Shown here piece by piece: positions 3,824 to 50,217 of a DNA stretch of 64,000 nucleotides. Origin of the DNA: a virus. Lineage: Duplodnaviria > Heunggongvirae > Uroviricota > Caudoviricetes. Within the stretch, counting starts at the first letter, position 1. Every line of letters starts with the position of its first letter. The stretch lies in the IMG/VR virus record IMGVR_UViG_2654587772_000002. One strand, 5' to 3'. Under the pieces are notes generated by a model. It was given only the letters and a program-made list of their open reading frames with translations. It was not told where the DNA came from and ran no database searches. Position numbers and translations under genes: made by a program.

Positions 3824-4713
3824 TATGCAAGCCTCACAATATAATTAAATGCGATGTTTTTAACGGTGTTTTCCGAGTTACCAGCAGCGTTAACGGTGAT
3901 GGTGTGTCCATGTGAACCAATCGCAACAGAGTGCGTATGAGCGCCAATATCAACTGTATGTGCATGCGCCCCTGCACTTGCAGCGGTGCCTGATACTGAG
4001 TGGGTGTGTGCACCAGAAGAAGGCACAGTTCCATTCCCCACCACAGTGCCGCTTGATGAGCCATCAAGCCAGTCGAAATTCATACCGCCACCATCTGGTC
4101 TCCTTAATGGAACGGTATGAGTATGTGCGCCAGCACTATTTGCAGTACCAGATACATTGTGGGTATGTGCACCTGTGTTATTCGTTGATTTAGTACCGTA
4201 ATCAAACGAAGATGTGGTTTTCGTACCCAAATCCGTATTGGATGCGCTGGCGCTGTGGGTGTGCGATTTAATGCCATCCTGTTCCAGAGACAATACGTCC
4301 CGACCACTGGCGGGTTTGCCCTTGATTGTCCAGCCACGCATATCCGGGATCACGCCTGACGGATAAGCGGCTGCAAGTTTCGGGTATGCAGATTTGTCAA
4401 AAGTCTGTCCCTGCATCAGGGCGTAACCAGACGGCACAGTATCTGATGGCCACGGATGCGGAACACCAACAGGAAGGACCTCAATATCCCCGGAACCATC
4501 AAACGAAACGTTATTAATTTTACGGGCTGTTTTCAGCTTTGTAGCCGTTGAGGCATTGCCGGACAGCTCACCAGAAATGCCACCAACAACTGTTAGATCA
4601 CCAGTTATTGTGCCGCCTGAACTTTCCAGTTTTTTAGCAACATCACTCTTAATAGAGTCGATTTCTTTTTTCAGATTAGTTATATCTGCTGGTATCGTTG
4701 TCACTGTTGCCAT
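3823..4713 (-). CDS. stf: Side tail fibre C-terminal module (lambda Stf-like) with its own start
   Basis: [52 protein letters not shown] ... GAHTH repeats ... [31 protein letters not shown] match lambda Stf C-terminus. Confidence 0.8.
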
Positions 4714-4722
4714 ATTAATTCC

Positions 4723-5001
4723 TTACGCCCATTCCCGCAGCGGTTGTTCTAATTGAACTTCAAAACCATCAAACATTTGTTGTTTCAAACTGTTGTTTAA
4801 AATACGAACATTAACGAAGAAGCCATCATTTTTAATCACTGTTGGTTCTTCGTTCTCGCCGTTTGGTATTTCGGTATATGTAACACCTACAACATCAAGA
4901 AGAATGTTGTTTTGCAGCTCTTCATTATCGTGCCAGGATATACTCTCTAAAAAAGAGTCGTATTCTGCCCTGTCTCTGAATTTCAACGTGATATCTTTCA
5001 T
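4723..5001 (-). CDS. Hypothetical protein; possible chaperone for the upstream fibre
   Basis: 92-aa ORF immediately downstream of the large fibre gene (1-nt stop/start overlap); no family recognised. Confidence 0.3.
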   Translation of the reverse strand: MKDITLKFRDRAEYDSFLESISWHDNEELQNNILLDVVGVTYTEIPNGENEEPTVIKNDGFFVNVRILNNSLKQQMFDGFEVQLEQPLREWA

Positions 5002-7901
5002 TAAATAACCTCAGCCATTTGTTGGTCTGTTAATGCTTTATGCCATATTCTGAAATTTCTGATATGACCAAATAAATGACGTAACCCTGCTGTAGTCTGG
5101 CCTCCAATACGGATGGTTGCAGAGTTCTGAATATAGGACCATGTCGTCTTTGTTTCGCTGGATATGCGCCCGTTACTTACTGAGCACGTAGACTGATCTG
5201 ATTTTACACGCATCCCCATAACCATTTTTTCAAGCAATGCGTTTTCGTTTACCCGTCTGTTAGCTCCTCCAATATCGCAATAAGGAAATCCGTCGTAATC
5301 TGCTGAAGAACCGAAGCCAAGAATAATAGCCGCTCCGGTTTGATGACCGCCGGTATCAAAAACACGTGGCGCTGCATTTGGCGTTTTATACCAGTTCTTA
5401 TGTACCTCACAAAGAACCGTAAAAGGAAGATTATAAAGATTATTATTAATTGGAACTGTAACTATATCGCTTGCGCGGGTAGCCGCCGTCGTTCCCGAGA
5501 TAATAAAAGATGATGCACACGAACCATCCTCAACCTGAGGGGTGGACAGATAAATATAGTCTCCAGATATGGTTGCTCCGCCCTGCTTAGGAGAATACTG
5601 TATCTGAGATCCTATTTTTAACTCATCATCAATTGCCTGGATTGTTGCCTCTGCAAAAATCCATCCGGTAGCTTCGTCCTTTCTGACTCTCGCTGTAATC
5701 CTTGAGGCCGCGCCACCTGTCATATTAATTTCAAGCGTTTGTGTATCAATATATGCATCACCAAGAAAAGTTGTTGCACTACCGTCATATTTATCAAAGC
5801 GGATACGTAACCTTACCTGTCGTTCTGTTTTAAAACGACATGAGGTTGTCACGTACTTGTTATCGCCTGAAACATCAACTGACTTTGTAGCAGCAATTGA
5901 TGCCATATTAATGGCTGACGTTTGCCCAATCAGAGAATCGTTACAGACAAACTTTCCATAGGTAAAACCAAAACTATCCGTCCCGGTTTCGGGAACATCC
6001 ATATTTGACGAGCGCCCCCAACTGGCAGGGTTTTCCGAATTGAGCATGTAGTTTGTTCGTTGTCCCTCAATAAGCAGACCATCACGTTCAAATCGTGGCT
6101 CGTCAATGGCAGCCTCTGTCAGCACACCAGATTTATTTATATAGGTTGCTTTCGATGCGCGTTTAAACTTAACAACCTTGTCGCCAGGCATTGTTATTTC
6201 GTCGTCGCCAATAACAATCTTTTTATATGATGGAGAAAAGCCCGCAATCATATCCAGCGAATCGTTAAACGGTATCCACACATCTGGCAGCGGTTGAATA
6301 ATCTTCCTGGCATCCTCCAGTGACAATGCTTCGACATCCGAAGCTGTTAAAGAAATATCTGCCGAACCGTCAAATGAAACGTTGTTAATCATCCGTGCTG
6401 TTTTTAATTTCGTTGCGGTGTCGGCGTTCCCCATCAGTGCGCCGGTGATCCCGCCGTTGAAAGTCTGGCGTGCACTCCATGTGTTAGCCGTGCTCAACAG
6501 GGGGATCTTTTCACCGCTTGTGCCGAGTTCTCTTAAACCAAGGTATTGGATAACAGCAAGGACGCTTGTTTTGGACAGAATATCGCGACCGACTGACGTT
6601 AAGTCAGTCTGAGAAACAGTGTCTGTACCGGTAAAGTACGGCAGTTTATTTGCGCCTGTAGCAAGACCAGCAAGCGCGGTTAAAGTTGCATCCAGAGGCT
6701 GTTTGCCTGCCAGCGCATTTGTCATTGTTGTCGCAAAGTTCGGGTCATTACCAAGTGCTGCGGCAAGCTCATTCAGGGTATCAAGAGCTTCTGGTGATGA
6801 ACCAACCAATGCGGATATGGCAGCTCTTACATAAGCAGTCGTAGCAATCTGCGTATTATTTGTGCCCTGCGCAGCCGTAGGCGCAGTAGGGACTCCCGTT
6901 AATGCAGGGCTTGCCAAAGGCGCTTTGAGGGCTAGGGCATTGTTGATAGTTGTGCTGAAATTCGGGTCGTTATTGATCGCAGCAGCTATTTCTTTAAGCG
7001 TATCCAGTGTGCCAGGTGCACCGTTGATAAGTGCCGTTATAGCTGACTTAACAAAGGCTGTATTTGCGATCTGCGTGCTATTTGTACCTTGCGCTGCCGT
7101 CGGCGCGGTTGGCGTTCCTGTCAGACTCGGGCTTTCTATTGGCGCTTTGGTATCAGCAAGACCTTTTACAGACTTAACGGCTTTAGGGGTAGCCGCCATT
7201 GTTTCGCTGTCGCTGTTAGTTTCGCTACTGAGCTGAACTAATCCCTTTTGCGTTGTGCTTGCATCCTGTGCCGTATACTTGCTTTTCGCCAGATCGTAGG
7301 CTTTTTTAGCTGCCAGCGAACTTGCAGCAACATCACTTCTGCTACTGGTTACAGAGTCTGAAATATCAATGCCGATCGTGCGGTTAATACGCTCGGATGT
7401 ATCAATCATCTCCTGGGTAATGGCTGATACGCCAGCAGGGATATTCACCGTACAAACAAGCAGCTCTCCATCTCCTAACTGATATGAATCGGTATAGGTT
7501 CTGGCAACAAATTCAGCCGCATGAATATGTGACGCGGTATTAACCTGATAGGTATCCTCTCCAAGGAGGTATCTTCCCTTCAGCACAATTGCATATTTCT
7601 TGCCTTCACTAAGTGCAAGAGAAATATCCTTACGGTGCCGAATAGTTACCTGGTAGAATTCACCAATATCCACTGACGCAGCGCCAGCAGTTTTATCACC
7701 ATCCACTGAGGTGATTAACAGGTTCATACCACCGCCAGGCTTCGGCAGGAAACCGGCATAAAACCCAGGATCAACAATTCCCCTGAATTTTCGGTTTAGC
7801 GCGGCTGACAGATATGGTTCGTGGTATTGCACATCAGCCACCAGAGCCAGTGACTCGGGCGATGGGTAAGTAACTGATGTAACAACTGTAACGTCATTCA
7901 T
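5001..7901 (-). CDS. Tail fibre protein with Stf-type collagen-like repeats and a distinct C-terminal (lectin/LamG-like?) receptor-binding domain
   Basis: Repeated PL(A/D)SPxLTG(T/V)PTAPTAAQGTNxTQIA(N/T)TA(F/Y)V units and GLVQLSSETNSDSETMAATPKAVK as in lambda Stf; start set at internal ATG (MNDVTVV) just after the upstream stop; ORF-track start 7988 overlaps the previous gene. Confidence 0.8.
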   Translation of the reverse strand: MNDVTVVTSVTYPSPESLALVADVQYHEPYLSAALNRKFRGIVDPGFYAGFLPKPGGGMNLLITSVDGDKTAGAASVDIGEFYQVTIRHRKDISLALSEGKKYAIVLKGRYLLGEDTYQVNTASHIHAAEFVARTYTDSYQLGDGELLVCTVNIPAGVSAITQEMIDTSERINRTIGIDISDSVTSSRSDVAASSLAAKKAYDLAKSKYTAQDASTTQKGLVQLSSETNSDSETMAATPKAVKSVKGLADTKAPIESPSLTGTPTAPTAAQGTNSTQIANTAFVKSAITALINGAPGTLDTLKEIAAAINNDPNFSTTINNALALKAPLASPALTGVPTAPTAAQGTNNTQIATTAYVRAAISALVGSSPEALDTLNELAAALGNDPNFATTMTNALAGKQPLDATLTALAGLATGANKLPYFTGTDTVSQTDLTSVGRDILSKTSVLAVIQYLGLRELGTSGEKIPLLSTANTWSARQTFNGGITGALMGNADTATKLKTARMINNVSFDGSADISLTASDVEALSLEDARKIIQPLPDVWIPFNDSLDMIAGFSPSYKKIVIGDDEITMPGDKVVKFKRASKATYINKSGVLTEAAIDEPRFERDGLLIEGQRTNYMLNSENPASWGRSSNMDVPETGTDSFGFTYGKFVCNDSLIGQTSAINMASIAATKSVDVSGDNKYVTTSCRFKTERQVRLRIRFDKYDGSATTFLGDAYIDTQTLEINMTGGAASRITARVRKDEATGWIFAEATIQAIDDELKIGSQIQYSPKQGGATISGDYIYLSTPQVEDGSCASSFIISGTTAATRASDIVTVPINNNLYNLPFTVLCEVHKNWYKTPNAAPRVFDTGGHQTGAAIILGFGSSADYDGFPYCDIGGANRRVNENALLEKMVMGMRVKSDQSTCSVSNGRISSETKTTWSYIQNSATIRIGGQTTAGLRHLFGHIRNFRIWHKALTDQQMAEVI

Positions 7902-8425: not shown

Positions 8426-9265
8426 TCAGGCATCGCTATCCAGCAGCAAATCATCTGCGCGGGAGCGATCAAACGTAGGCGTTGCTTTCACAATAGTGCC
8501 GCCCGGCGTTGCAGTGATCGGGGCACTAATCGACGTAACTCCGGCAAGCGAAGTTGTATCCGAAGTTTCAAACCAGCAGTACGCTTTTTCGGTATCAGAA
8601 ATCTCGTTCAAAGTGATCATGTCGGCCTGTTCATTTACAACAACCGACAAATAGAGCGTAAGCCCATCAAACACTATATGCAGTGGCAGTAGAGGCTTTA
8701 CGAACTGATTAAACTTTCTGAGAATTTCTTCTGTAATTGCGGACTGATCTATCGTGCCAGTAATACCCATTGTCCTGGCCAGGTCGTTTATGGGAATACT
8801 GATCATCCCTCTGGAAGTCAGAAACATCTCGCCGAATGTGCCGCCAGTAGTCTCCAGTGTGCTTTCTGGTATTAGAACTGTGCCATAGGGATGACGCTCA
8901 AGGTCCACCGGTGCATATATCGGATCCCATAAAACAGAAATACCGTTAAATTCGCGGTAAATTGTCTGGTTTATAGGACGTTCAGTTCCCTTAAAGTGGA
9001 TCTCATCAAGCCGCTGTTGTAACAACATCGGAACGGAAGATGAGTTCGAGGTTCTGATAGTAAAGAACTGGCCAAGTTCATTTGTCCTGGTCTCCAGATC
9101 CTCCTTGCTCATGGAGAAAATAGACTTCCGGTTGGTAATTCGCTCCAACCATGGGTCAACAAAGGTGTCCATCATTGACTGAACCAAATCAGCCAATGAT
9201 TTATAGAGCAATGACTTTTGCTTAGCTGATGTAAGCCGGTTATTAAACCAGGAACGCTGCATCAC
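8426..9265 (-). CDS. Hypothetical virion-associated protein
   Basis: 279-aa ORF; 4-nt start/stop overlap with upstream gene. Confidence 0.4.
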   Translation of the reverse strand: MMQRSWFNNRLTSAKQKSLLYKSLADLVQSMMDTFVDPWLERITNRKSIFSMSKEDLETRTNELGQFFTIRTSNSSSVPMLLQQRLDEIHFKGTERPINQTIYREFNGISVLWDPIYAPVDLERHPYGTVLIPESTLETTGGTFGEMFLTSRGMISIPINDLARTMGITGTIDQSAITEEILRKFNQFVKPLLPLHIVFDGLTLYLSVVVNEQADMITLNEISDTEKAYCWFETSDTTSLAGVTSISAPITATPGGTIVKATPTFDRSRADDLLLDSDA

Positions 9266-10695
9266 TCCTCCTCATACGAAATATTAAAGGTGGAGCTTTC
9301 TGTATCCAGATAAACGAAATCGTAAAAGCCGTTGGACTCATTCCACTCGACAAATTCCAGATAAAAGTCGCGGAAATAACCCAGCGTTTCGATAAACGCC
9401 CAAACGTCTTTTTTCTTAATCAGGATGTACTTTCCGACGCGGTTCGGATCAAAGAAAGTTGAGTCGCGCCCAAATTTTGTTTCCAGTGCCGACTTCAGCT
9501 CATCGGTCACATTCTCAATGGTCAGGCTTGCCGATATCCGTCCGGTGATGGTTATCTTAAATGGTAGTTTTCTGACCTCTTTATAAGAGAATTTCTTGTT
9601 CAGTTCATTCGGTACCTTCTTAAAGGCAGTCAGGATCATTTCTTCAAGCTCTGACTGGCTTTTATTTGGATGCCATCCTGAAATAAATATCTTATTGATA
9701 TTCTGAACATTATAAGCACCATCTAATTTCTCTTGCTGGCCTTCGCCCCATGCCTTTACCCAGGACAGCCCCGGGATGTTACGAACCAGAAAATACGTAT
9801 AGTCCCCGCCCCATACGACCTGATCATCATAGGCAAGGTAATATTGTGCACGGTTACGTGTGATCTCCGTTGTTTCAGCATCGGTACCTGCGGTTATAGG
9901 TGTCGTTGTCTTAACTGAAATCAAATTAGCTAAATCAGCCGCAGAATCGACAGGCGTCAGGTTTTGGCCAGCAACCAGGGTTATATCGCCGTTGGTGCAC
10001 CATACCTTAAGCGTAATTGTCGAACCTTCTGGCGGTATTTGCCCAATTAGCCCATCGCCGAATCGAACCCCCAACTGCTCGGATGGTTTATAAAACTCAA
10101 CGTAGACCTGGCTTTTACTACCGGCTAACCGGAACATAGTGCTGGAAGACCACTGCGTGGTCTTCCCATCGGTTGTCACGAATACTTCCAGCTTATAGCA
10201 GACAGCAGTAAGAGCCTTTGATAACACGACTTCCAGAAATTCTTTGGCTGCCGTAACGGTATATGTCACCTCCTGGATTTCCAACTGTGCCACTTCTACC
10301 GTACCGGTGCCGTCAACCAACCTGCATACATCCATAGTCATGTAAGGGTACTGGTCGTCAGATATTAAAGGCATGTTTTTGGGGATTACCGCTGGGGCAT
10401 CTTCACTTGTGGCGGTGATCTCAATCATCCCCGATGACGGTGTTGGCTTGGTACCAACATAACTGTTCGTTTCTGCCGCAGCCAGGATAGAGGAACGCCG
10501 CGTCGCGGTCGATATAAAGCCTTCAGCCAGCGCCGCATCGGCATACTGAAAGCACCTGTAGACAATCTGGGTAATAAACAATGTCAGCATCGAGACAAAT
10601 TGAGAGCCGACAAACTTCGACCAGAATGAATCTTTCTCGACAAGCTCTTCAAACTCTGCACGAATACTGTCTTTAGTCGGTGTTGTTTTACTCAT
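9262..10695 (-). CDS. Hypothetical virion-associated protein (477 aa)
   Basis: Long clean ORF, 4-nt overlaps with both neighbours (translational coupling). Confidence 0.4.
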   Translation of the reverse strand: MSKTTPTKDSIRAEFEELVEKDSFWSKFVGSQFVSMLTLFITQIVYRCFQYADAALAEGFISTATRRSSILAAAETNSYVGTKPTPSSGMIEITATSEDAPAVIPKNMPLISDDQYPYMTMDVCRLVDGTGTVEVAQLEIQEVTYTVTAAKEFLEVVLSKALTAVCYKLEVFVTTDGKTTQWSSSTMFRLAGSKSQVYVEFYKPSEQLGVRFGDGLIGQIPPEGSTITLKVWCTNGDITLVAGQNLTPVDSAADLANLISVKTTTPITAGTDAETTEITRNRAQYYLAYDDQVVWGGDYTYFLVRNIPGLSWVKAWGEGQQEKLDGAYNVQNINKIFISGWHPNKSQSELEEMILTAFKKVPNELNKKFSYKEVRKLPFKITITGRISASLTIENVTDELKSALETKFGRDSTFFDPNRVGKYILIKKKDVWAFIETLGYFRDFYLEFVEWNESNGFYDFVYLDTESSTFNISYEEE

Positions 10696-39750: not shown

Positions 39751-41208
39751 TTAGGAGCGCCAAAAAAAACCTGAAAACAATATAATAACAGGATAAATTT
39801 CAAGGCGACCAAGAATCATAGCTATGCACATTAAACATTTTGCAATGTCATTAAGCACTCCGAATGACGATGCAGTAGCCCCAAAACCTAATCCCATATT
39901 ATTAATACATGCAGCCACTGTTGCAAATGATGTAAGAAAATCATATCCCATACCATTTAACACCAGTATAAAAAACACCGTGAAGAGAGTATAAAGAAAA
40001 AAGAAACTCCATACAGACCTCATTACACGATCTGTAACTATCTTCCCTCCTACATTTACACTCAACAACGCTCTGGGATGAGAAAGCTGATTTATCTCGT
40101 GTTTGCTTTGTTTGAAAAGTATAAGAAATCGAAGTGACTTAATTCCACCACAAGTTGAACCTATACATCCCCCAAAGAAACTTGACAACAGCAAAAACAC
40201 TATCGTGTGCGTGGGCCAACTTGCATAATCCTGCGTAGCTAAACCATTATCAGTGAGCATGGAGCTGGCAAGAAAAAACGAATGAATAAAACTTCCATGC
40301 AAGTCATACATACCTATATGCCAGACCTGGAAAGAGGTAACAATGATCACCCCTAAGGCTATTAACAGAAAGAAACGAAGTTCAATATCTCTGATTAAAG
40401 GTTTTATCGTTTTCCTGCTAATAACAATATACCAAAGAGTGAAGTTGAAAGCCGATAGCAGGGAAAAAGAACCAGCCACCAGCTCAACCAAATAGTTATT
40501 AAAATATCCGATACTCTCGCTATGAGTTGAGAAACCACCAAGCGAAACTGTGGAAATCCCGTGACAAATAGCATCAAACAAAGGCATTCCTGCAAGTCTA
40601 TAACAGACAATACAAGCAATACCTAATAAAGAATAAGTTATCCACAGTGTCCGTGACGTATCGGCCAGGCGGGGAGTGAGTTTGTCATCCTTAAATGGCC
40701 CCGGCATTTCTGACTGATAAAGCTTTGCACCACCAATACCCAATAATGGCAATACAGCAACCGCCAGAACAATAACTCCTAAACCACCTATAAAATTTAA
40801 CTGTGACCGATAGTACAAATATGCCCGAGGTAATGAACTAACATCATCAATTACAGTTGCTCCTGTTGTTGTTATTCCAGAAACCCCTTCAAACAGAGCA
40901 TCAATGAACGTTAAATTAAGTTCTGAGTCAATCCATAAAGGGAATGCACTAATAACAGAAAACAAAATCCAAAACATTACAATTATAATAAACCCATCAC
41001 GGGTACGTAATTGAATGCCAGATTTCTTAGTTGTATACCACGCTCCGCCACCAATGCAAAAAAATATAACGAAAGTTATAAAGAAAACGAACAGGCTTTT
41101 TTCTTTATAAAACAATGCTACAACCATTGGTGGCAACATTGAAAGACTATAGAGCCAAACCAGGAACCCACACATATGAGTAACAACTCTTACATGAGAT
41201 GTATTCAT
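39751..41208 (-). CDS. trkG: Trk system potassium uptake protein TrkG (prophage cargo)
   Basis: 485-aa polytopic membrane protein starting MNTSHVRVVTHMCGFLVW; AT-rich relative to flanks; known Rac cargo gene. Confidence 0.85.
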   Translation of the reverse strand: MNTSHVRVVTHMCGFLVWLYSLSMLPPMVVALFYKEKSLFVFFITFVIFFCIGGGAWYTTKKSGIQLRTRDGFIIIVMFWILFSVISAFPLWIDSELNLTFIDALFEGVSGITTTGATVIDDVSSLPRAYLYYRSQLNFIGGLGVIVLAVAVLPLLGIGGAKLYQSEMPGPFKDDKLTPRLADTSRTLWITYSLLGIACIVCYRLAGMPLFDAICHGISTVSLGGFSTHSESIGYFNNYLVELVAGSFSLLSAFNFTLWYIVISRKTIKPLIRDIELRFFLLIALGVIIVTSFQVWHIGMYDLHGSFIHSFFLASSMLTDNGLATQDYASWPTHTIVFLLLSSFFGGCIGSTCGGIKSLRFLILFKQSKHEINQLSHPRALLSVNVGGKIVTDRVMRSVWSFFFLYTLFTVFFILVLNGMGYDFLTSFATVAACINNMGLGFGATASSFGVLNDIAKCLMCIAMILGRLEIYPVIILFSGFFWRS

Positions 41209-41345
41209 ATCTAAATATTCTTTCAATTATAACCACCTTGCTGCAATATTATGATTATACTGTATAAAATTTAACTCCTCTTAGATCTTACTTCACTGTT
41301 CCTTATGAAACAATCATCAAAATGAATCATATTGTAGTTAAGATT

Positions 41346-41810
41346 TTACTTTAAACACTGCTCGGTTATGTATTGCTGAGCACCTTCAAGTTGGGCCTGC
41401 ATCATTACCAGTCGTTCCCGGAGGGTGAAATAATCCCGTTCAGCGGTGTCTGCCAGTCGGGGGGAGGCTGCATTATCCACGCCGGAGGCGGTGGTGGCTT
41501 CACGCACTGACTGACAGACTGCTTTGATGTGCAACCGACGACGACCAGCGGCAACATCATCACGCAGAACATCATTTTCAGCTTTCGCATCAGCTAACTC
41601 CTTCGTGTATTTTGCATCGAGCGCAGCAACATCACGCTGACGCATCTGCATGTCAGTAATTGCCGCGTTCGCCAGCTTCAGTTCTCTGGCATTTTTGTCG
41701 CGCTGTTCTTTGTAGGCGATGGCGTTATCACGGTAATGATTAACACCCCATGACAGGCAGACGACGATGCAGATAACCAGAGCGGAGATAATCGCGGTTA
41801 CTCTGTTCAT
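41346..41810 (-). CDS. Rz: Spanin inner-membrane subunit Rz
   Basis: N-terminal TM anchor followed by coiled-coil periplasmic region; downstream of endolysin. Confidence 0.8.
41405..41590 (-). CDS. Rz1: Spanin outer-membrane lipoprotein Rz1, embedded in Rz in the +1 frame
   Basis: [20 protein letters not shown] lipobox then proline-rich (PPPPPAW..PPPDW) periplasmic tail; entirely inside Rz. Confidence 0.75.
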
Positions 41811-42304
41811 TGCTGACCCCACAAACAGATTTCACGCTCAATCTCACGACGAGTCATGAGACCTTTCCATTGCTTACCGCCAGCATATGTCCAGCGACGT
41901 AGCTGATCACATGCGCCTTTGATATCGCCCTGGTTTATTTTGCGAAGAAGCGTCGATGTTCTGAAATTGCCAGCACCCACGTTGTAAACGAATGAGTAAA
42001 GAGCGCCGCGCGTTGTTTCCGGTATATCGACTTTGATGTACGGGTTAATTTGTCTGGCGACCGTGGCAAGGTCTTTATTCAAGAGTGTTTTGCATTCTGC
42101 TTTGGTATACGTTTTACCGAGCATGATGTCTTTTCCTGTATGCCCGTGACATACAGTCCATACACCAACAATATCTTTGTATGGTATGTAGCTGACACCT
42201 TCCAGACCATCGTTACCACTTGGGCCAGTGATTAACACTGATGCTATAGCAATTGCTCCGCCACCAATAGCAGCAGCAACGACTTTTCGTAATGATGGAG
42301 GCAT
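41807..42304 (-). CDS. R: SAR endolysin (lysozyme with N-terminal signal-anchor-release domain)
   Basis: Gly/Ala-rich N-terminal SAR helix ([18 protein letters not shown]) followed by lysozyme-type domain; phage 21 R-like. Confidence 0.85.
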
Positions 42305-42519
42305 TATTCACCTCTCGCAGCCTTGCGCTTATCTTCTTTAATCTTGAAATAAAGGTTTGTCAGGTACGTCAGCAGGCCAAATACCAGACTACCCAGCACA
42401 CCGATTGCAGCCCACTGTGACGGAGTTACTCTATCGAGCAACTGTAAAAACCAGTAGCCAGCACTGCCTGCGGAGGTGCCGTAGGCAATGCCTGTTGAAA
42501 TTTTGTCCATGGATTTCAT
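42304..42519 (-). CDS. S: Pinholin (phage 21 S-like) with dual-start MKSMDK motif
   Basis: [26 protein letters not shown]...[13 protein letters not shown] matches S21 as recalled; upstream in-frame extension to 42576 probably not translated. Confidence 0.85.
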
Positions 42520-42619
42520 AGCCTCACCTCCGCACGGAACGGATGGCATAGTTATTATGTGTAGGCTTTCAGACACATCAATCAGAGCCTTAATTGATAT
42601 ATATGCTGGAGACGATGCA

Positions 42620-42645
42620 ATATAAAAAGCTCGCCGTAGCGAGCT
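42620..42645 (-). terminator. Rho-independent terminator after lipoprotein moron
   Basis: agctcgc-cgta-gcgagct stem-loop followed by U-run in the minus-strand sense. Confidence 0.4.
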
Positions 42646-42770
42646 AATAAAATGTATTTCTCTGATATTATGTTTATTTGTATTAGCTCAGACTTGACAT
42701 CACAGGTTTCGTATATAGAACATCATCAAATCTGTCAGTTTGCTATGAATGAGATATAGTAACTGAAGAG

Positions 42771-43166
42771 CTAACCTCGCATGTCAAAGCCAGATTTCTG
42801 AAAATCTCTGTAGACTTCCGGATTGTTGAAGGCCGGAAATTTGGCTTTATGAGCTGCGGACTTTATCGCTTCGCAATAGGCTTTATCACCGTTACTGGTA
42901 GATATTTTTAACGCCGTACCATCCTGAGAGAATTCCATATGCAACCTGCATTTTTTCCCTTTCCAGTTATGCGGCTCATCAAGTTTGGCATTAATTGCAG
43001 CTCTGATTCCCCGCGCTTGCGCCCCCCATTCATCCTGATCATCCCAGCGTCCTGAACTGCAACTACCTGTAGCAGTAGTTTTGTGGCAATCTGAAGGGTG
43101 TAAAGGTGTGCATCCCGCAACAAAACCGACCCAAAAAGTCAACATAACGATTTTCTTTAATCCCAC
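42771..43166 (-). CDS. Lipoprotein (moron), paralog of 43317..43745
   Basis: Signal peptide with lipobox VAGC; shared C-terminal domain (GKKC.L.M....G..L.....GD...C.A...A..KA.FPA...PEVY..FQ). Confidence 0.6.
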   Translation of the reverse strand: MGLKKIVMLTFWVGFVAGCTPLHPSDCHKTTATGSCSSGRWDDQDEWGAQARGIRAAINAKLDEPHNWKGKKCRLHMEFSQDGTALKISTSNGDKAYCEAIKSAAHKAKFPAFNNPEVYRDFQKSGFDMRG

Positions 43167-43316
43167 TTCTTGCTCCTCAATCCATTAAAATCTCAGCAAT
43201 AGTAGTTGTTACGTCCGCCACTGGCTCAGAGCTGACTATCCGCTAAATTTAGCTCAGTGCCGTAGCTGTGTCAGAACAAACCTAAGCCGAAACCGTTTAT
43301 TACAAAACAATAAATA

Positions 43317-43745
43317 TCAGGGTTTAAAATCCAGCACCCCATTTTGAAATACTTTATATACTTCCGGCGAAGGGGGGGCAGGTATATCAGCATTCTTTAT
43401 CGCATTCATCGCTTCACGACATAAATCGAGGTCTCCACTTTCTCTTTTAACCTCCAGTAGAAGGCCATTCGGGGCCATATGCATTCTCAGTGTACACTCT
43501 TTTCCTGAATACTTACTCGCATCCCCGAACTGTTTTTCGATGGCGCTCTTGATTTGATGGGCATACAGACGGATATCCTCACTAACATCAGAAGTACGTT
43601 CAGATGAACTCACATACTGTGTCTCTATTGCTTTATCGGAGTAATATGATGTACGGTCATGATAATTTGTCGATACAGCATCAGTGCACCCGATAATAAT
43701 CCCACTAATAATCAACGTAAGAATTGATGCGCTACGAAAACCCAT
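43317..43745 (-). CDS. Lipoprotein (moron), paralog of 42771..43166
   Basis: Signal peptide with lipobox IIGC; same C-terminal domain as the neighbour. Confidence 0.6.
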   Translation of the reverse strand: MGFRSASILTLIISGIIIGCTDAVSTNYHDRTSYYSDKAIETQYVSSSERTSDVSEDIRLYAHQIKSAIEKQFGDASKYSGKECTLRMHMAPNGLLLEVKRESGDLDLCREAMNAIKNADIPAPPSPEVYKVFQNGVLDFKP

Positions 43746-44332
43746 TTTTCCTCACATATGTCATATAGTAAAGGATTATATATACCGTTGTTTTGGACGC
43801 TCAAACAGCGAATCAGATCAAATAAAACGCACATTTGTTAACATTTACACAAAGTCTGCGTGGGATATTCTGAAAGAATATCCATAATGTGGAGAGAATC
43901 TATTGAAGTGCATGGTGCCGGGTGCCTCCCGGTGAACAAAATGTTCGTGATACCTGTCGGCGACAGAAAAGGTTAATGGTATCACCCCACCGCACAGGGG
44001 GATTCACCATGCAGGAGTTTTCTTAGCAAACTCACTGCGCGCCCGGCAACTCCCAACCACATAAAATGCGGAGTTTGTGGTATTTATGCATATAACTCGC
44101 AGGAATTATCTTAAAAAACTGATGTCGATCCGGATTAAAAAGAAGCAGGTCATCATCAGATGACTGGAAAAAAGGAAAACAAAAAATACTCATCATACAG
44201 TTTTGATTGCAGGGATGAGCCTGCTATGCACAATATGCAGAATATAAGCAAGATAAAAATATGCAGGCATATTATTTCGGATTTTGTTATTAACACAACC
44301 TTTTTAATAATCATTTGGCATACAATAAACCA

Positions 44333-44362
44333 GCCCAAAAAGAACCGCCTAAACAGGCGGTT
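44333..44362 (-). terminator. Rho-independent terminator (candidate late-operon tR')
   Basis: aaccgcc-taaaca-ggcggtt stem-loop followed by CTTTTTGGG on the minus strand. Confidence 0.45.
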
Positions 44363-44682
44363 GGTCAATACAAAGGATGCTTCGTCTTTATTATAGTAAT
44401 CTGAGGCGTCGAGTGTCTTGTATCAGACAACATATTGTCCCGCTAAACAGCGAATTACAAACCACCCTGCAATGATCTCTCATCTCATTTTATATGAGTT
44501 GACGACATCAGGATAACGCATCATCAGCCCCTGCCAAGAAATATCAAAACTCCCGCCAGCAATGTGTTATCACAATATTGTAAAAAAAACACAGCACCGA
44601 AACTATAACTGGTCTCTGTTATAATTTGGAGCAGAAAGACCAGTTGCCCAACTAGCAGCATTCTCCCCTGCTTTCCTGACGT

Positions 44683-44710
44683 AAAAAAACCGCATTGAGC
44701 GGTTTTTTTA
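44683..44710. terminator. Bidirectional stem-loop terminator about 100 nt downstream of Q
   Basis: aaaaaaaccgc-attga-gcggttttttt: 7-bp stem with A-run and T-run on either side. Confidence 0.45.
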
Positions 44711-44789: not shown

Positions 44790-45332
44790 TCAAGCCATTT
44801 TCTCAGCAAATGATTCACGCATGGGAATATATAGGGCATACTCAGCAACAGCTAACCAATTAGCAATCCGTTTTTCGCATGTGCTAAAACACCACTCTGG
44901 GTGTGCATCATTTAGCAATTCAGCCATTTTGCGCTTAGTCATCCCCCGCCCTTCATAGCGTTGCCGGAGAATGCAAATCAATCCTGGATGCTCTGCCAGC
45001 ACCTCACTTATGACTCGATCAATACATAACGCCTCTGCATCAGTACAATGCGCCAGCCAGCTCTTTTGCTTGCCGTTGATCATCTCTCGCAAAAACGCTT
45101 CCAGCTCAGCTTTCTCTATTCCCGCTTTTTTCATTCTGCGCAGGGCTTCATTAATGGCTGTTTTCGTCAGTTTTTTGGATGCCAACAACTGATTGAACAT
45201 ATTCCCTGACCTGCCACCGCCAATATACGACCAGCGCCCCCACATACGTAGTTTTCCCTGAATCCAGACACTTTCCAGCGTGGTGAGGCGAAGGTGTTCT
45301 CCGCTTTTTCCTGTATTCGTTGGGTAAATCAT
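44790..45332 (-). CDS. Q: Late-gene antiterminator Q
   Basis: 180-aa protein in the Q position (after nin-like genes, before terminators and lysis cassette); resembles phage 82/21-type Q as recalled. Confidence 0.7.
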   Translation of the reverse strand: MIYPTNTGKSGEHLRLTTLESVWIQGKLRMWGRWSYIGGGRSGNMFNQLLASKKLTKTAINEALRRMKKAGIEKAELEAFLREMINGKQKSWLAHCTDAEALCIDRVISEVLAEHPGLICILRQRYEGRGMTKRKMAELLNDAHPEWCFSTCEKRIANWLAVAEYALYIPMRESFAEKMA

Positions 45333-46717: not shown

Positions 46718-48109
46718 ATGACTGAGAACACGACTCCAACAGCAGACTTTAGTCCTAGTAAAAGATTTTTTGTGAGTATGCTAACTCGAGATATCGACTT
46801 AAACGATGCCATACTTGATCTGCTTGATAACTGCGTCGATGGGGCTTTACGTACAATAAAAGACACAAAAAAAACTTCAAAACCATATGAAGGATTTTAT
46901 GCGAAACTTACGATTAATAAAGATGTCTTTATTATAGAAGACAATTGCGGAGGTATCCCTAAAAGCTTCCGAGAATATGCTTTTAAAATGGGACGACCCC
47001 ATCAAAAAGAAGAAGAAAATGAAGGCACCGTTGGCGTCTATGGTATTGGTATGAAAAGAGCCATTTTTAAAATGGGTAGAGATTGCTCAATACAATCGAA
47101 TAATCCCGATGGCGCATTCACTGTAGATATAACACCTGATTGGATCGATGGTGATGGTTGGAAAATACCGATGCACGAGAGTGACTATGATAACAAAAAT
47201 CCAACAGGCACAACTATAGAGATAAAAAAACTCCATTCTAATGTGGCACAAAAATTTAATGAGAGCACATATCTTACTGATCTCTTTTTACAGATAAAAC
47301 ACTCATTGTCATTTATTATTCAAAAAGGATTTAAAATAGAATTAAATGGAGTTGTTGTTGAACATAATCCGATTAACATCATAACTGATCATTCTAAAAT
47401 AGAACCATACATATATAAAGCTAAAATAGACGATGTTGATATCGATTTAGTTGTTGGCTTCTATAAAAATTTAGAAGATGACAATGATGATGTTTTAGAA
47501 AAAAGGAGTTCTGATGATGCTGGATGGACTGTCATTTGCAATGACCGCGTTGTTCTATATTGTGATAAGACACATCTCACAGGTTGGGGCTTTGCTAATG
47601 TACCAAGGTTTCATACCCAATTTATAGCAATTTCTGGGGTTGTTCGCTTTACCAGTAAAAACCCAGAAAAATTACCAATAACAACAACGAAACGAGGTGT
47701 CGATCTTAGTTCTACATTGTACAATGATGTACGAAATAAAATGATTGAAGGGATGATGCATTTTATTCGATTCACCAATCAGTGGAAAGGTGAGCATCTT
47801 GAAGAAGGGAAAAAATTACTTAAGTCAGCTCAGTCACATGAAGCTCAATCTTTATTTGAAATTACCCCACAATCAACTCCAGAAGATAAAAAAAATAACT
47901 GGTCCAACCCTAATAGAAACAAAAATGAGTGGCGATATACACCTAAGCTGCCTACCCCAGTAAAAAAAAGCTCTACTGTACGAATAATCTTCACCAGAGA
48001 GAAAGAAGATGTTAAAATTTTATCTAAATATTTCTTTGGACATGAAGATGCTAGCGCTTCTGATGTGGGGATGCAATGCTTTGATACGGTGATTGAAGAG
48101 GTGAAGTGA
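46718..48109 (+). CDS. GHKL-family (MutL/MORC/histidine-kinase-like) ATPase with about 330-aa C-terminal domain of unknown function
   Basis: Bergerat-fold motifs: N box LLDNCVDGA, G1 box IEDNCGGIP, G2 box GVYGIGMKRAIFKMG in the first ~120 residues. Confidence 0.8.
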   Translation: MTENTTPTADFSPSKRFFVSMLTRDIDLNDAILDLLDNCVDGALRTIKDTKKTSKPYEGFYAKLTINKDVFIIEDNCGGIPKSFREYAFKMGRPHQKEEENEGTVGVYGIGMKRAIFKMGRDCSIQSNNPDGAFTVDITPDWIDGDGWKIPMHESDYDNKNPTGTTIEIKKLHSNVAQKFNESTYLTDLFLQIKHSLSFIIQKGFKIELNGVVVEHNPINIITDHSKIEPYIYKAKIDDVDIDLVVGFYKNLEDDNDDVLEKRSSDDAGWTVICNDRVVLYCDKTHLTGWGFANVPRFHTQFIAISGVVRFTSKNPEKLPITTTKRGVDLSSTLYNDVRNKMIEGMMHFIRFTNQWKGEHLEEGKKLLKSAQSHEAQSLFEITPQSTPEDKKNNWSNPNRNKNEWRYTPKLPTPVKKSSTVRIIFTREKEDVKILSKYFFGHEDASASDVGMQCFDTVIEEVK

Positions 48110-49098
48110 TGTCTGGACAATACATTCCCTATCACTTAAGGCATAATAAGTCTATTGATAGAGAGATTTTTCTCGAAAGCCTAAACCTCTTAAGCAAAAG
48201 ACTAAATATTCAAGAATATACATATATAGGTTTTGGTGGTCCGATGCTTGAAGATTTTAGAATCATGCATAATCGTATCGCTCTTTCTGATATGATTTCT
48301 CTCGAAGAACAAGAGTCTACTCACATCAGACAAAAATATAATTTGCCTTATAATTGTATTGATTGTAAGCTAATATCAGCTCATGACTTTATTCTTGATT
48401 ATAGTTTTTCTAAACCATCAATAACATGGTTAGACTATGCCTCCCCGAAAAAAATACAAACGGATCTAGATGATATACACTTACTAAGTACTAAAGTAAG
48501 CTCTTTTGATATTTTGAAGGTCACCTTCCCCATAAATCCTAGTTCTTATTACCAACGTAGAGTTGGAGAAAGTTTAGATATTTTTAAAGAAGCTTTTATT
48601 AATTCATTAAAATCATTGCTTGGGAAAAAGTATCTTGATTTTAATCTTCAGATATCAAATGCAGATCTTTCAGATCGTAAGATTAAAGCTCTTTTAATAC
48701 GAATTATTACAAACGCTTTTAGATCAGCAATAGAACGTGGTCTTTCAGGACGTAAGGATAAGATTCAGTATTACCCATTATCTTTAAATCAATATAATGA
48801 TGGCAGTCATACCATGTTGACAATATCAGGTTTTTTCTCCTCAGAACAAGAATATATAGAGTTATCTAAGGCATGCGACCTTTCTAACTGGCAATTTTAT
48901 TCAACAAATTGGGAAGACGTGCAAGAAATAGCAATACCAACACTAACAATTAAAGAAAAGATAAATTTAGATAGTAAACTGCCTGATAAAGAAGCATATC
49001 AGGCAGCCGCTGAAGAGTTCTCTTTAAACGAAAATGAACGGGATAACTATTATAAATACTATAGGTTATACCCTAACTTCCAAAGAATTATGGTTTAA
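48106..49098 (+). CDS. Unknown 330-aa protein translationally coupled to the GHKL ATPase (candidate effector/specificity subunit)
   Basis: Stop/start overlap (GTGATG) with upstream gene; AT-rich; no recognisable motif. Confidence 0.6.
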   Translation: MMSGQYIPYHLRHNKSIDREIFLESLNLLSKRLNIQEYTYIGFGGPMLEDFRIMHNRIALSDMISLEEQESTHIRQKYNLPYNCIDCKLISAHDFILDYSFSKPSITWLDYASPKKIQTDLDDIHLLSTKVSSFDILKVTFPINPSSYYQRRVGESLDIFKEAFINSLKSLLGKKYLDFNLQISNADLSDRKIKALLIRIITNAFRSAIERGLSGRKDKIQYYPLSLNQYNDGSHTMLTISGFFSSEQEYIELSKACDLSNWQFYSTNWEDVQEIAIPTLTIKEKINLDSKLPDKEAYQAAAEEFSLNENERDNYYKYYRLYPNFQRIMV

Positions 49099-50217
49099 AT
49101 ATTCGGGCTGTACTCTTTTATTTAATAAATTGTACAGCCCCTTTAATATATATTCAGCAACTATTGGTGACACGCTATTTCCTATTTGTCTGAAACTATG
49201 CCATTTAGTTACATGAAAGCGAAACCAATCAGGGAAGCCTTGTAATCTAGCAGCTTCTCTTGGTGTAATCACTCTTGGATGATAAGGGTGGATCGGCCTG
49301 ACGGCTTGAAAGCTTCCTTTATCTCTAGCGGTTCCCGCCCTTAAAGTCGGGCAAAAACCATTTGGATCTAATCTTGTAGATCTTGAAATTTTATCAGTTT
49401 CCCCAAAAGATAAGGAAGCATAACGCTCTTGGACGATTTTGCTATGTAATGTTCCGGTACATCCAGATATGATATTATTTTTTAACTTAGCGATCGATTC
49501 TGTATCACCAACATTCCGAGGGATCTGCCCCCATAATTTTTCATAAAATCCCCCTTTTCGATCTTTTTTAATTGTTCGCCAACTCTCAGAGTCTGATTGC
49601 CAATTGGCATCGATAATATCTGGTAATCCATACAAAGCATCTTTTACAGTAACCGGATCAATCATTTTAGGCATAAATACTTCATCTGAAATATCAAGCT
49701 TCAATGATTTTTTTACACCGATAAAAAAATATCTAGTTCGAATAGTTGGAGCACCATAATCAGATGCTTTTACCTTGATGGGATCAAGAATATCATAATC
49801 ACCGCTAACCAAATTAAATGCTTTATTTCTAATGCCAGAATATTTCTCTTGCATAATACCTGGAACATTTTCTGCCAAAAAGAATAATGGCTGTAATTCT
49901 GATACTAAACGGTAGAAATGCATGTAAAGCTGATTCCTGCTATCATCAGGATTCCCCTTGCCTATTGAACTAAATCCTTGGCACGGAGGACCGCCAATAA
50001 TACCATCTATGGGCATATCGTTTTTAAAAAAACCCTTAATTATTTCTGCATTTAGTAAAGAAACATCTTCTTGGACGTGCAAACTTCTTGGAAAATTAAT
50101 TGCGTGAGTATTAATAGCATGTTGATCAATTTCAACTGCCATTTTAACATCAAATCCAGCACGTGCAGCACCAAGACTTAGACCTCCAACGCCAGAAAAC
50201 AAATCTATTACATTCAT
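49066..50217 (-). CDS. DNA (cytosine-5)-methyltransferase
   Basis: Motif I DLFSGVGG, motif IV GGPPCQGFS, motif VI ENV (FLAENVPG), motif X GNSVSP; about 150-aa variable target-recognition region; convergent with partner gene, 3' ends overlap 33 nt. Confidence 0.9.
   Translation of the reverse strand: MNVIDLFSGVGGLSLGAARAGFDVKMAVEIDQHAINTHAINFPRSLHVQEDVSLLNAEIIKGFFKNDMPIDGIIGGPPCQGFSSIGKGNPDDSRNQLYMHFYRLVSELQPLFFLAENVPGIMQEKYSGIRNKAFNLVSGDYDILDPIKVKASDYGAPTIRTRYFFIGVKKSLKLDISDEVFMPKMIDPVTVKDALYGLPDIIDANWQSDSESWRTIKKDRKGGFYEKLWGQIPRNVGDTESIAKLKNNIISGCTGTLHSKIVQERYASLSFGETDKISRSTRLDPNGFCPTLRAGTARDKGSFQAVRPIHPYHPRVITPREAARLQGFPDWFRFHVTKWHSFRQIGNSVSPIVAEYILKGLYNLLNKRVQPEYLNHNSLEVRV

Follow-up and report, generated by a model that had tools for sequence, protein, structure and literature searches.

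What are two small lipoprotein genes doing between the antiterminator and the lysis genes of a lambdoid prophage? The question is raised by a stretch of 64,000 nucleotides, IMG/VR virus record IMGVR_UViG_2654587772_000002 (Caudoviricetes; hereafter the window, whose own coordinates are used throughout), in which a Rac-type lambdoid prophage hosts the two genes, here called geneA and geneB, both on the minus strand. A preliminary description of the locus had taken them for paralogous lipoprotein morons, possibly acting in superinfection exclusion or serum resistance, with a common C-terminal domain loosely recalling those of TolA and TonB. Both open reading frames (ORFs) are present where it had placed them, and the resemblance to TolA, offered then without confirmation, turns out to be real and specific: as far as their sequences tell, the two proteins are isolated copies of TolA domain III (TolA-III) carried on a predicted lipid anchor. 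TolA is the periplasmic protein on which colicins and filamentous phages depend for entry into E. coli.

A TolA domain III without the rest of TolA

The shared domain cannot be put down to chance, since BLASTP aligns geneA and geneB over their whole length at 29% identity with an E value of 2e-18; at about 88 residues it is longer than the approximately 70 first proposed. Both proteins match Pfam TolA_C (PF06519, gathering threshold 25), geneA with 82.6 bits (E 2.4e-23) and geneB with 54.6 bits (E 1.3e-14). Residues 55-142 of geneA align without gaps with residues 334-421 of E. coli TolA in PDB (E 5e-28), and the alignment of geneB is also ungapped, if weaker (E 5e-09). In this register identity to TolA is 59% for geneA and 31% for geneB, identity between the two is 28%, and both end at TolA's final residue. 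The Cys pairs that had been noted together with a PEVY..FQ motif are Cys84-Cys109 in geneA and Cys73-Cys98 in geneB; they align with the C363-C388 disulfide of TolA, and both they and the motif, PEVY(K/R)xFQ, are invariant or nearly so in both families. AlphaFold2 (AF2) models have a predicted local distance difference test score (pLDDT) above 90 over the domain in both proteins, with the helix (H) and strand (E) order H-H-E-E-H-H-E, and a Foldseek search with the geneB model has 3QDP as its top match (template modelling score, TM, 0.92; root mean square deviation 1.1 A). The nine best matches are all TolA-III, and TonB C-terminal domains come next, with E values of 2e-2 or worse as compared with 2.6e-08 for TolA; geneA also clears Pfam TonB_2 (23.6 bits, cut-off 22). 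Fold, Pfam family, disulfide and C-terminal end are thus those of E. coli TolA-III (approximately residues 334-421; PDB 1S62, 1TOL, 3QDP/3QDR, 2X9A), whereas the prophage proteins have a lipoprotein signal and a short tether in place of TolA-I and domain II, have no coupling to TolQR and the proton-motive force, and are encoded on prophages, plasmids and genomic islets instead of in the tol-pal operon.

The TolA-I membrane anchor is absent from both proteins, whose N-termini read as cleavable lipoprotein signal peptides, and so is helical domain II, with 25-35 residues leading from the lipid-bearing Cys to the domain. As the anchor and the helical domain are what defines TolA, the two are, on a reading of the sequence, single TolA-III modules attached to a predicted lipid anchor and not TolA. 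The NCBIfam models of TolA match them by their last ~95 positions only (positions 265-362 of 362 in TIGR02794, 293-386 of 387 in NF007065). Both proteins fall below the cut-off of NF007065 (213 bits; 107.8 for geneA, 53.7 for geneB), and geneB also stays below that of TIGR02794 (47.2 against 59.45), which geneA exceeds with 75.6 bits by its C-terminal domain alone. This is the origin of the 'tolA' label that the Prokaryotic Genome Annotation Pipeline (PGAP) gives geneA, a name that over-annotates. In RefSeq geneA stands as 'tolA / cell envelope integrity protein TolA' (WP_000506936.1) and geneB as 'TolA C-terminal domain-containing protein' (WP_001348108.1). The geneB of PGAP is seven codons short (124 residues) and lacks the Lys-Lys n-region with which the signal peptide begins. 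The later ATG is, however, an unlikely start, and we take the 131-residue form beginning with GTG 43166 as correct, since plasmid homologues carry ATG exactly at this codon; a Shine-Dalgarno sequence, GAGGAG, lies at 43173-43178, 6 nt before the GTG, and geneA has GAGGA ahead of its ATG. Both annotation problems recur at a further locus (L001; geneA at 9156-9584, geneB at 9756-10130). The 'tolA' of a paper on soil survival of O157 is the chromosomal tolA.

As to the lipid anchor, the lipoboxes that had been read as VAGC and IIGC are there, and they are conserved within both families. Each protein has a charged n-region, a hydrophobic h-region and a lipobox of the pattern [LVI][ASTVI][GAS]C, and the residue at +2 across both families is Thr, Ser, Ala or Gly and never Asp. 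In E. coli, lipoproteins without Asp at +2 are sorted to the outer membrane, and on this rule both proteins are predicted to be outer-membrane lipoproteins. In geneA, which consists of signal peptide, tether and TolA-III, the signal and lipobox sequence is MGFRSASILTLIISGIIIGC, followed by TD after the Cys of the cleavage site, and the pLDDT is below 50 over residues 13-52. A lipobox is present in every full-length geneA homologue, the alleles of 65-74% identity included (variants IVGC, TTGC and TAGC); one 67% allele, P0026, has TNGC at the site, which the pattern used does not score. For geneB, a lipobox-like tetrapeptide is scored in 120 of the 120 clusters listed (clusters at 90% identity).

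The tether of geneA has as its counterpart in geneB a conserved module with a Cys loop and Trp and acidic residues, which follows the pattern CxPLxPxxCHKxxAxxxCxSGxWxDxDxW from the lipid-bearing Cys to the domain. It is the best-conserved part of the protein, with 15 of the 29 positions of residues 19-47 (43026-43112) invariant among 111 cluster representatives, and AF2 confidence is low over it. No relative of the module was found in PDB by a sequence search with residues 19-53. A loose resemblance of the geneB sequence SSGRWDDQDEWG to the TolB box of colicin E9 was dropped, as the same search returned no colicin at E values up to 10.

Which ligands the domains could bind can be judged from TolA itself, to which the N-terminus of TolB, colicin N and filamentous-phage g3p-N1 bind by strand addition at beta3 (PMC4339652; PMC7391070). 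The backbone amides of D418 and K420 in this strand are essential, Pro at either position producing a full tol phenotype (PMC4339652). The strand (TolA 415-421, APLDFKP) is GVLDFKP in geneA and SGFDMRG in geneB, without Pro at the D418 and K420 positions; the LDFKP of geneA, which includes the TolB-binding strand, is identical to TolA's, and the FDMRG of geneB retains the Asp together with strand-forming residues. Colicin A binds the opposite face, at L375-P380 of beta2, where K368, K379 and K396 take part in cation-pi contacts (PMC3365938). Here geneA has LLEVKR, with K379 and K396 kept and K368 replaced by His, and geneB has ALKIST, with all three lysines lost. Judged by these residues, geneA would be a faithful two-faced mimic of the host's TolA-III and geneB a remodelled one, and as geneB has lost the colicin A lysines and carries an extra conserved N-terminal module, the two are probably not redundant.

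Two lineages under selection

The two genes had been called paralogous, and homologous they are, but they did not arise by duplication in place: a local tandem duplication is ruled out, geneA being nearer to the TolA of the host than it is to geneB, which has an independent lineage of its own. Alleles of geneA are found only in lambdoid prophages and only in the slot between Q and holin. The divergent ones (65-91% identity), in all of which reading frame, lipobox and domain are retained, follow a Q of either the DUF1133 or the Pfam Antiterm type, each time without geneB, and other alleles adjoin a nanS-p-type esterase gene, tRNAs or DUF826. The lineage of geneB includes copies of ~87% nucleotide identity on ~600 plasmids. 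One example is pO157/pEDL933-1 (L003, 5995-6426), where the homologue belongs to the leading region, with psiB-psiA-hok ahead of it and toxB beyond it. Another is the IncK/I plasmids (L004, IncK2/Z, 5995-6426), where it has the nikB relaxase gene on one side and trbC on the other. A plasmid homologue carries in PLSDB the Gene Ontology term 'bacteriocin transport', an electronic inference only. In Enterobacter, Citrobacter and Serratia, copies of 80-84% identity are solo chromosomal genes in unrelated positions, as in Serratia marcescens, immediately upstream of GmrSD_N and HEPN genes (L009/L010, 6001-8736). The surroundings of the Serratia marcescens gene have the look of a defence island. In all these plasmid and chromosomal copies, homology is limited to the ORF and ~30 bases.

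Selection has acted on both genes. For mature geneB the ratio of nonsynonymous to synonymous substitution rates (dN/dS) is 0.04-0.12 at a dS of 0.5-1.1 between hosts; for geneA it is 0.09-0.34 in the domain and 0.3-0.6 in the tether, which is looser than the domain. With values this low, both are to be regarded as functional genes.

In the lambdoid setting the pair travels as part of a block made up of the small RNA (sRNA) gene STnc100, geneA, geneB, a terminator and the holin. The block is shared with phage mEp460_ev081 at 96.8% identity over 1740 bases, and the flanking Q and endolysin/lysis genes differ. Among the best 80 geneB loci in IMG/VR, 79 have both geneA and this holin; as these 80 are all 99%-identical copies, they inform on linkage and not on diversity. 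The complete cassette occurs in 772 of the 5426 complete genomes of E. coli (~14%), and it is nearly clonal, with an identity of 99% or more across 784 E. coli records; E. coli K-12 is without the two genes. Among 50,697 deposited phage genomes, searched by DNA and by protein, a single one has it, that of mEp460_ev081 (LR597641.1; L002). The 'ev' in the name of this phage suggests a laboratory-evolved recombinant, which may have gained the block from a resident prophage.

Beyond these close copies, 130 relatives were recovered from 1.84 billion representative proteins, 70 of them of 105-170 residues, and 54 of the 70 combine a lipobox with a C-terminal TolA-III. The named ones are from Erwinia, Klebsiella, Enterobacter, Citrobacter and Dryocola, with generic names throughout. 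With this many short relatives carrying a lipobox, and with members in several genera, such putative TolA-III lipoproteins are a sizeable uncharacterised family of the Enterobacterales.

The slot between Q and holin

On the minus strand the genes follow in the order NinB-like gene, HNH gene, Q-like antiterminator, ~1 kb without long ORFs, geneA, a 150-nt spacer, geneB, an intrinsic terminator, holin, endolysin, Rz/Rz1 and trkG (Table 1). The position that had been proposed, between Q and the holin, is therefore the right one. The same locus in E. coli strain ST2747 is annotated as ydaV ... DUF1367, DUF1364, DUF1133, 'tolA' and 'TolA C-terminal domain-containing protein', followed by essD, rrrD, a lysis protein gene, trkG and terminase. 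The notion of a cargo slot is also borne out, as geneA alleles lie between Q and holin behind two families of Q and the block from STnc100 to the holin moves together. Position and modular exchange are those of other lambdoid cargo of this slot (stx, nanS-p esterases, tRNAs, Pas/STnc100 sRNAs), and the kind of product is different. GC content does not deviate markedly at the cassette, and in this window the slot holds no tRNA genes, which other geneA loci have.

Table 1. Features of the two genes and of their surroundings, in window coordinates
Feature	Position	Strand	Description or evidence
geneA	43745..43317	-	142 amino acids; lipobox IIGC, ...IISGIIIGC before TD; ORF call
geneA signal peptide and lipobox	43686..43745	-	residues 1-20, IIGC; +2 Thr, +3 Asp; sequence reading
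geneA tether	43584..43685	-	residues 21-54; Ser/Thr/Tyr-rich, predicted disordered; AF2
geneA TolA-III domain	43320..43583	-	residues 55-142; PDB alignment, AF2
geneB	43166..42771	-	131 amino acids; lipobox VAGC, ...WVGFVAGC before TP; ORF call
geneB signal peptide and lipobox	43110..43166	-	MGLKKIVMLTFWVGFVAGC; GTG start; TP follows the lipid-bearing Cys; sequence reading
geneB N-terminal module	43035..43109	-	residues 20-44, TPLHPSDCHKTTATGSCSSGRWDDQ; conservation across cluster representatives
geneB TolA-III domain	42774..43034	-	residues 45-131; C-terminal strand SGFDMRG, Cys73-Cys98; PDB match, AF2, Foldseek
Mobile block (STnc100, geneA, geneB, terminator, holin)	42303..44033	-	common to phage mEp460_ev081
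Q-like antiterminator (DUF1133)	44790..45332	-	upstream of geneA; phrog_753, E 2e-79
Candidate late promoter	44419..44390	-	AAGACA-18-TATAAT; consensus scan only
Candidate terminator after late promoter	44362..44343	-	consensus scan; the pair resembles pR'/tR'
STnc100 (PasD-related) sRNA gene	43856..44042	-	Rfam RF02076, full length; 86.6 bits, gathering 47, E 3e-18
Predicted sigma-70 promoter upstream of geneA	43775..43804	-	TTGAGC-18-TATAAT; 10/12 consensus match
Intrinsic terminator between geneB and holin	42618..42645	-	7-bp GC-rich stem, tetraloop, T-run; seen in minimum free energy fold
Holin (essD-like), first gene of the lysis cassette	42304..42519	-	PHROG holin match
Endolysin	41807..42304	-	PHROG endolysin match
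Rz/Rz1	41346..41822	-	PHROG spanin match

Of the terminator-like hairpins that had been placed after each gene, the one after geneB is canonical: its stem-loop (42645..42628) reads AGCTCGC-TACG-GCGAGCT followed by TTTTAT, and it is the sole strong terminator within the block. After geneA there is none, the 150-nt spacer having no GC stem with a T-run and folding no better than its shuffles (z -0.44). As to the designation as morons, the terminator after geneB, the presence/absence polymorphism and the modular exchange agree with it; the two genes have one terminator between them, though, and their promoter is a prediction. A moron read through by Q-modified polymerase would be consistent with this layout.

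The STnc100 gene lies directly upstream of geneA, and the mobile block has its upstream edge where this gene starts. It is also found upstream of geneA in mEp460_ev081 (5855-6045) and at the locus of the 91% geneA allele (L022), where three copies flank geneA (4704-4877, 5599-5803 and 5854-6061). STnc100, a relative of PasD, is an sRNA already known from prophages, in which this slot is its typical place, and the study of Pas/STnc100 synteny makes no mention of 'TolA' (bioRxiv 10.64898/2026.05.13.724894).

A few further features of the prophage are worth recording. A hairpin with flanking A- and T-runs (AAAAAAACCGCTCAATGCGGTTTTTTT) lies at 44682-44708 on the minus strand, ~80 nt downstream of the stop codon of the Q-like gene; it looks like a bidirectional terminator and is absent from the consensus-scan list. 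The early-right region of the prophage (46718-50217) encodes, according to the annotation of the identical ST2747 locus, an ATP-binding protein, an O-methyltransferase and a DNA cytosine methyltransferase, a block that may be another cargo or defence module. As in Rac, trkG (39751-41226) follows the lysis cassette; 39751-41226 and 41050-41350 are markedly AT-rich (GC 0.30-0.40, the lysis genes having ~0.50), which would fit their having been acquired separately.

Possible roles and their meaning

If these are functional copies of TolA-III, what are they for? The reading that we rank first, and that we regard as an even call, is that both proteins are decoys, acting by competitive mimicry of TolA-III and conferring tolerance to Tol-dependent bacteriocins and phages. 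Lol sorting would place the two lipoproteins at the inner face of the outer membrane, where, with the membrane anchor and helical domain II absent, they could not be coupled to TolQR or the proton-motive force and would present unenergised, dead-end domains. Tethered in this way, the TolA-III domains would capture the TolA-binding epitopes of group A colicins and of filamentous-phage g3p, and partly TolB, before energised TolA does, and the lysogen, or the carrier of geneB on a plasmid or chromosome, would be tolerant to Tol-dependent bacteriocins and phages. A protective function is ranked first because geneB also occurs on plasmids and chromosomes, which speaks for a benefit to growing cells; the carrier elements profit when the host survives. 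There is a precedent of sorts in engineered strains. Levengood-Freyermuth, Click and Webster reportedly found in 1993 that wild-type cells exporting TolA-III to the periplasm are leaky and tolerate colicins E1, E2, E3 and A, and Wan and Baneyx are said to have shown in 1998 that exported TolA-III makes cells leaky. In these cases, too, an isolated TolA-III is exported in a tolA+ cell; the natural proteins differ in being predicted to be lipid-anchored, diverged from host TolA and under selection, and geneB has the extra conserved module. Exported TolA-III has since served as a leakiness tool (PMC6195910).

Several observations weigh against protection by decoys. Outer-membrane location, ligand binding and a protective phenotype are all things that we infer for these proteins, and in the open-access literature, whose silence is not proof, no study of TolA-III lipoproteins encoded by phages or plasmids was found. 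Free periplasmic TolA-III damages the outer membrane, and so a constitutive decoy should be costly. Both genes lie within the putative Q-dependent late transcript, and their main expression may thus come during lytic growth, when protection would be of little use; the promoter upstream of geneA is a consensus match only, with a weaker -10 element (TGTAAT) in the 91% alleles. The restriction of geneA alleles to the Q-to-holin slot fits a role in the phage cycle as well as it fits conversion. The best-conserved part of geneB is its N-terminal module and not the ligand faces of its TolA-III, and hence the key activity of this protein may lie elsewhere than at these faces. PADLOC defence models give no match to either protein at E values up to 1.

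The main alternative, which takes up the lytic setting, is sabotage of the Tol-Pal system: expressed in bulk late in infection, the proteins would titrate the N-terminus of TolB, along with other partners of TolA, and stop the mobilisation of Pal, and the outer membrane would loosen or vesiculate, aiding spanin lysis and release or shedding decoy vesicles. The genes are placed for this, directly between the Q and late-promoter region and the holin with which they travel as a block, and geneA alleles are confined to that place; the TolB-binding strand of geneA is TolA's own, mutants of beta3 that lose TolB binding show the full tol phenotype (PMC4339652), and exported TolA-III makes cells leaky, the purpose for which it is used in PMC6195910. 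We nevertheless consider this unlikely. The prophage already has a full set of holin, endolysin and Rz/Rz1, the affinity of TolA for TolB is weak (Kd, the dissociation constant, 40-200 uM; PMC7391070), and the near-absence of the genes from deposited phage genomes (one in 50,697) does not agree with a general lysis accessory. Strong constraint on geneB is seen on plasmids and where the gene stands alone in a chromosome, settings that have no lysis programme.

Small phage lipoproteins of the outer membrane that block receptors, such as Cor and Llp, are an established class, and the two proteins could belong with them in function, the tethered strand-addition module latching onto a periplasmic box in some outer-membrane protein (such as the TonB box in FhuA or BtuB, or a porin or TolC partner) and excluding tailed phages or TonB-dependent colicins. 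The match of geneA to Pfam TonB_2, the place of TonB C-terminal domains as next structural neighbours of the geneB model and the resemblance of the TolA-III-TolB complex to TonB on a TonB box (PMC7391070) can all be cited for it, and the invariant N-terminal module of geneB suggests a second, specific partner. Nothing in the gene context, however, indicates a partner, and the domain is far nearer to TolA than to TonB (the 59% identity and the retained last strand of geneA, and the Foldseek ranking), which points to the ligands of TolA, so that this alternative is quite improbable. Least credible, to the point of being nearly dismissed, is that the genes are inert passengers, captured fragments of the 3' end of tolA hitch-hiking in prophages, or artefacts of annotation. 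PGAP does give geneA a plain 'tolA' label, and a near-clonal cassette in 784 E. coli records is what a recent prophage sweep would leave, but both genes acquired and kept a signal peptide and a lipobox that TolA lacks, both have good Shine-Dalgarno sequences, geneA alleles of 65-91% identity keep ORF, lipobox and domain, and the dN/dS of geneB remains at 0.04-0.12 across genera at a nearly saturated dS.

Competitive decoys would also have a distinct place among known systems. Cor (of phi80, HK022 and N15), Llp (T5), TraT (F) and Bor (lambda) alter the susceptibility of the cell to outside agents. Like these, geneA and geneB would be small outer-membrane lipoproteins of mobile elements, and like Bor they adjoin lysis genes; no relationship of sequence or family to any of the four was found in Pfam or PHROGs. 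These databases assign to the two proteins nothing beyond TolA/TonB-type domains and families of unknown function (phrog_5772, 'unknown function'), and the serum-resistance role that had been suggested for them is unsupported, nothing like Bor, Iss, TraT, Cor or Llp being recognized there. The targets of Cor, Llp and TraT are receptors in the outer membrane, whereas here the protein copied is the periplasmic import hub itself, and for this reason the predicted spectrum is that of Tol-dependent colicins and filamentous phages. In cells infected by filamentous phages, periplasmic N-terminal domains of g3p occupy TolA, making the cells tolerant to colicins and resistant to superinfection. The decoys would block the same interaction of TolA-III with its ligands in mirror image: there the ligand saturates the hub, here the ligands would be mopped up by a copy of it.

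Overall, the domain is a familiar one and thousands of genomes have the genes under generic annotations, with no function for the family found in PHROGs or PADLOC and no paper on the genes found in the open-access literature, and a lipid-tethered copy of a periplasmic import hub would be new among the lipoproteins by which mobile elements change susceptibility. A wider proposal, advanced tentatively and in our estimate less likely than not, is that a large and so far undescribed family of tethered copies of the TolA hub is spread over the mobile elements of Enterobacterales, broad-spectrum decoys that amount to a 'receptor-mimic' immunity to entire classes of Tol-dependent bacteriocins and to pilus-specific filamentous phages, two diverged members of which are stacked at this locus, the N-terminal module of geneB perhaps adding a second target. 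Whatever their role, the genes are common, in ~14% of complete E. coli genomes and, as geneB, on hundreds of plasmids including the virulence plasmid pO157 of enterohaemorrhagic E. coli, and their annotation is in need of repair, with a misleading 'tolA' label on geneA in thousands of genomes and a shortened start in geneB. If the decoy reading is true, they would represent a horizontally transferable tolerance to bacteriocins and phages not tied to one colicin, and receptor-mimic immunity would differ both from cognate immunity proteins and from exclusion proteins that block receptors. The pili made by F- and I-type plasmids attract TolA-dependent filamentous phages, and geneB on such plasmids would protect the very cells so exposed. 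Tolerance of this kind would matter for antimicrobials based on colicins or phages, for the use of phage display with wild strains and for gut competition, and for the study of the Tol-Pal system the two proteins would provide a natural, evolved, dominant-negative probe of the interaction between TolA and TolB.

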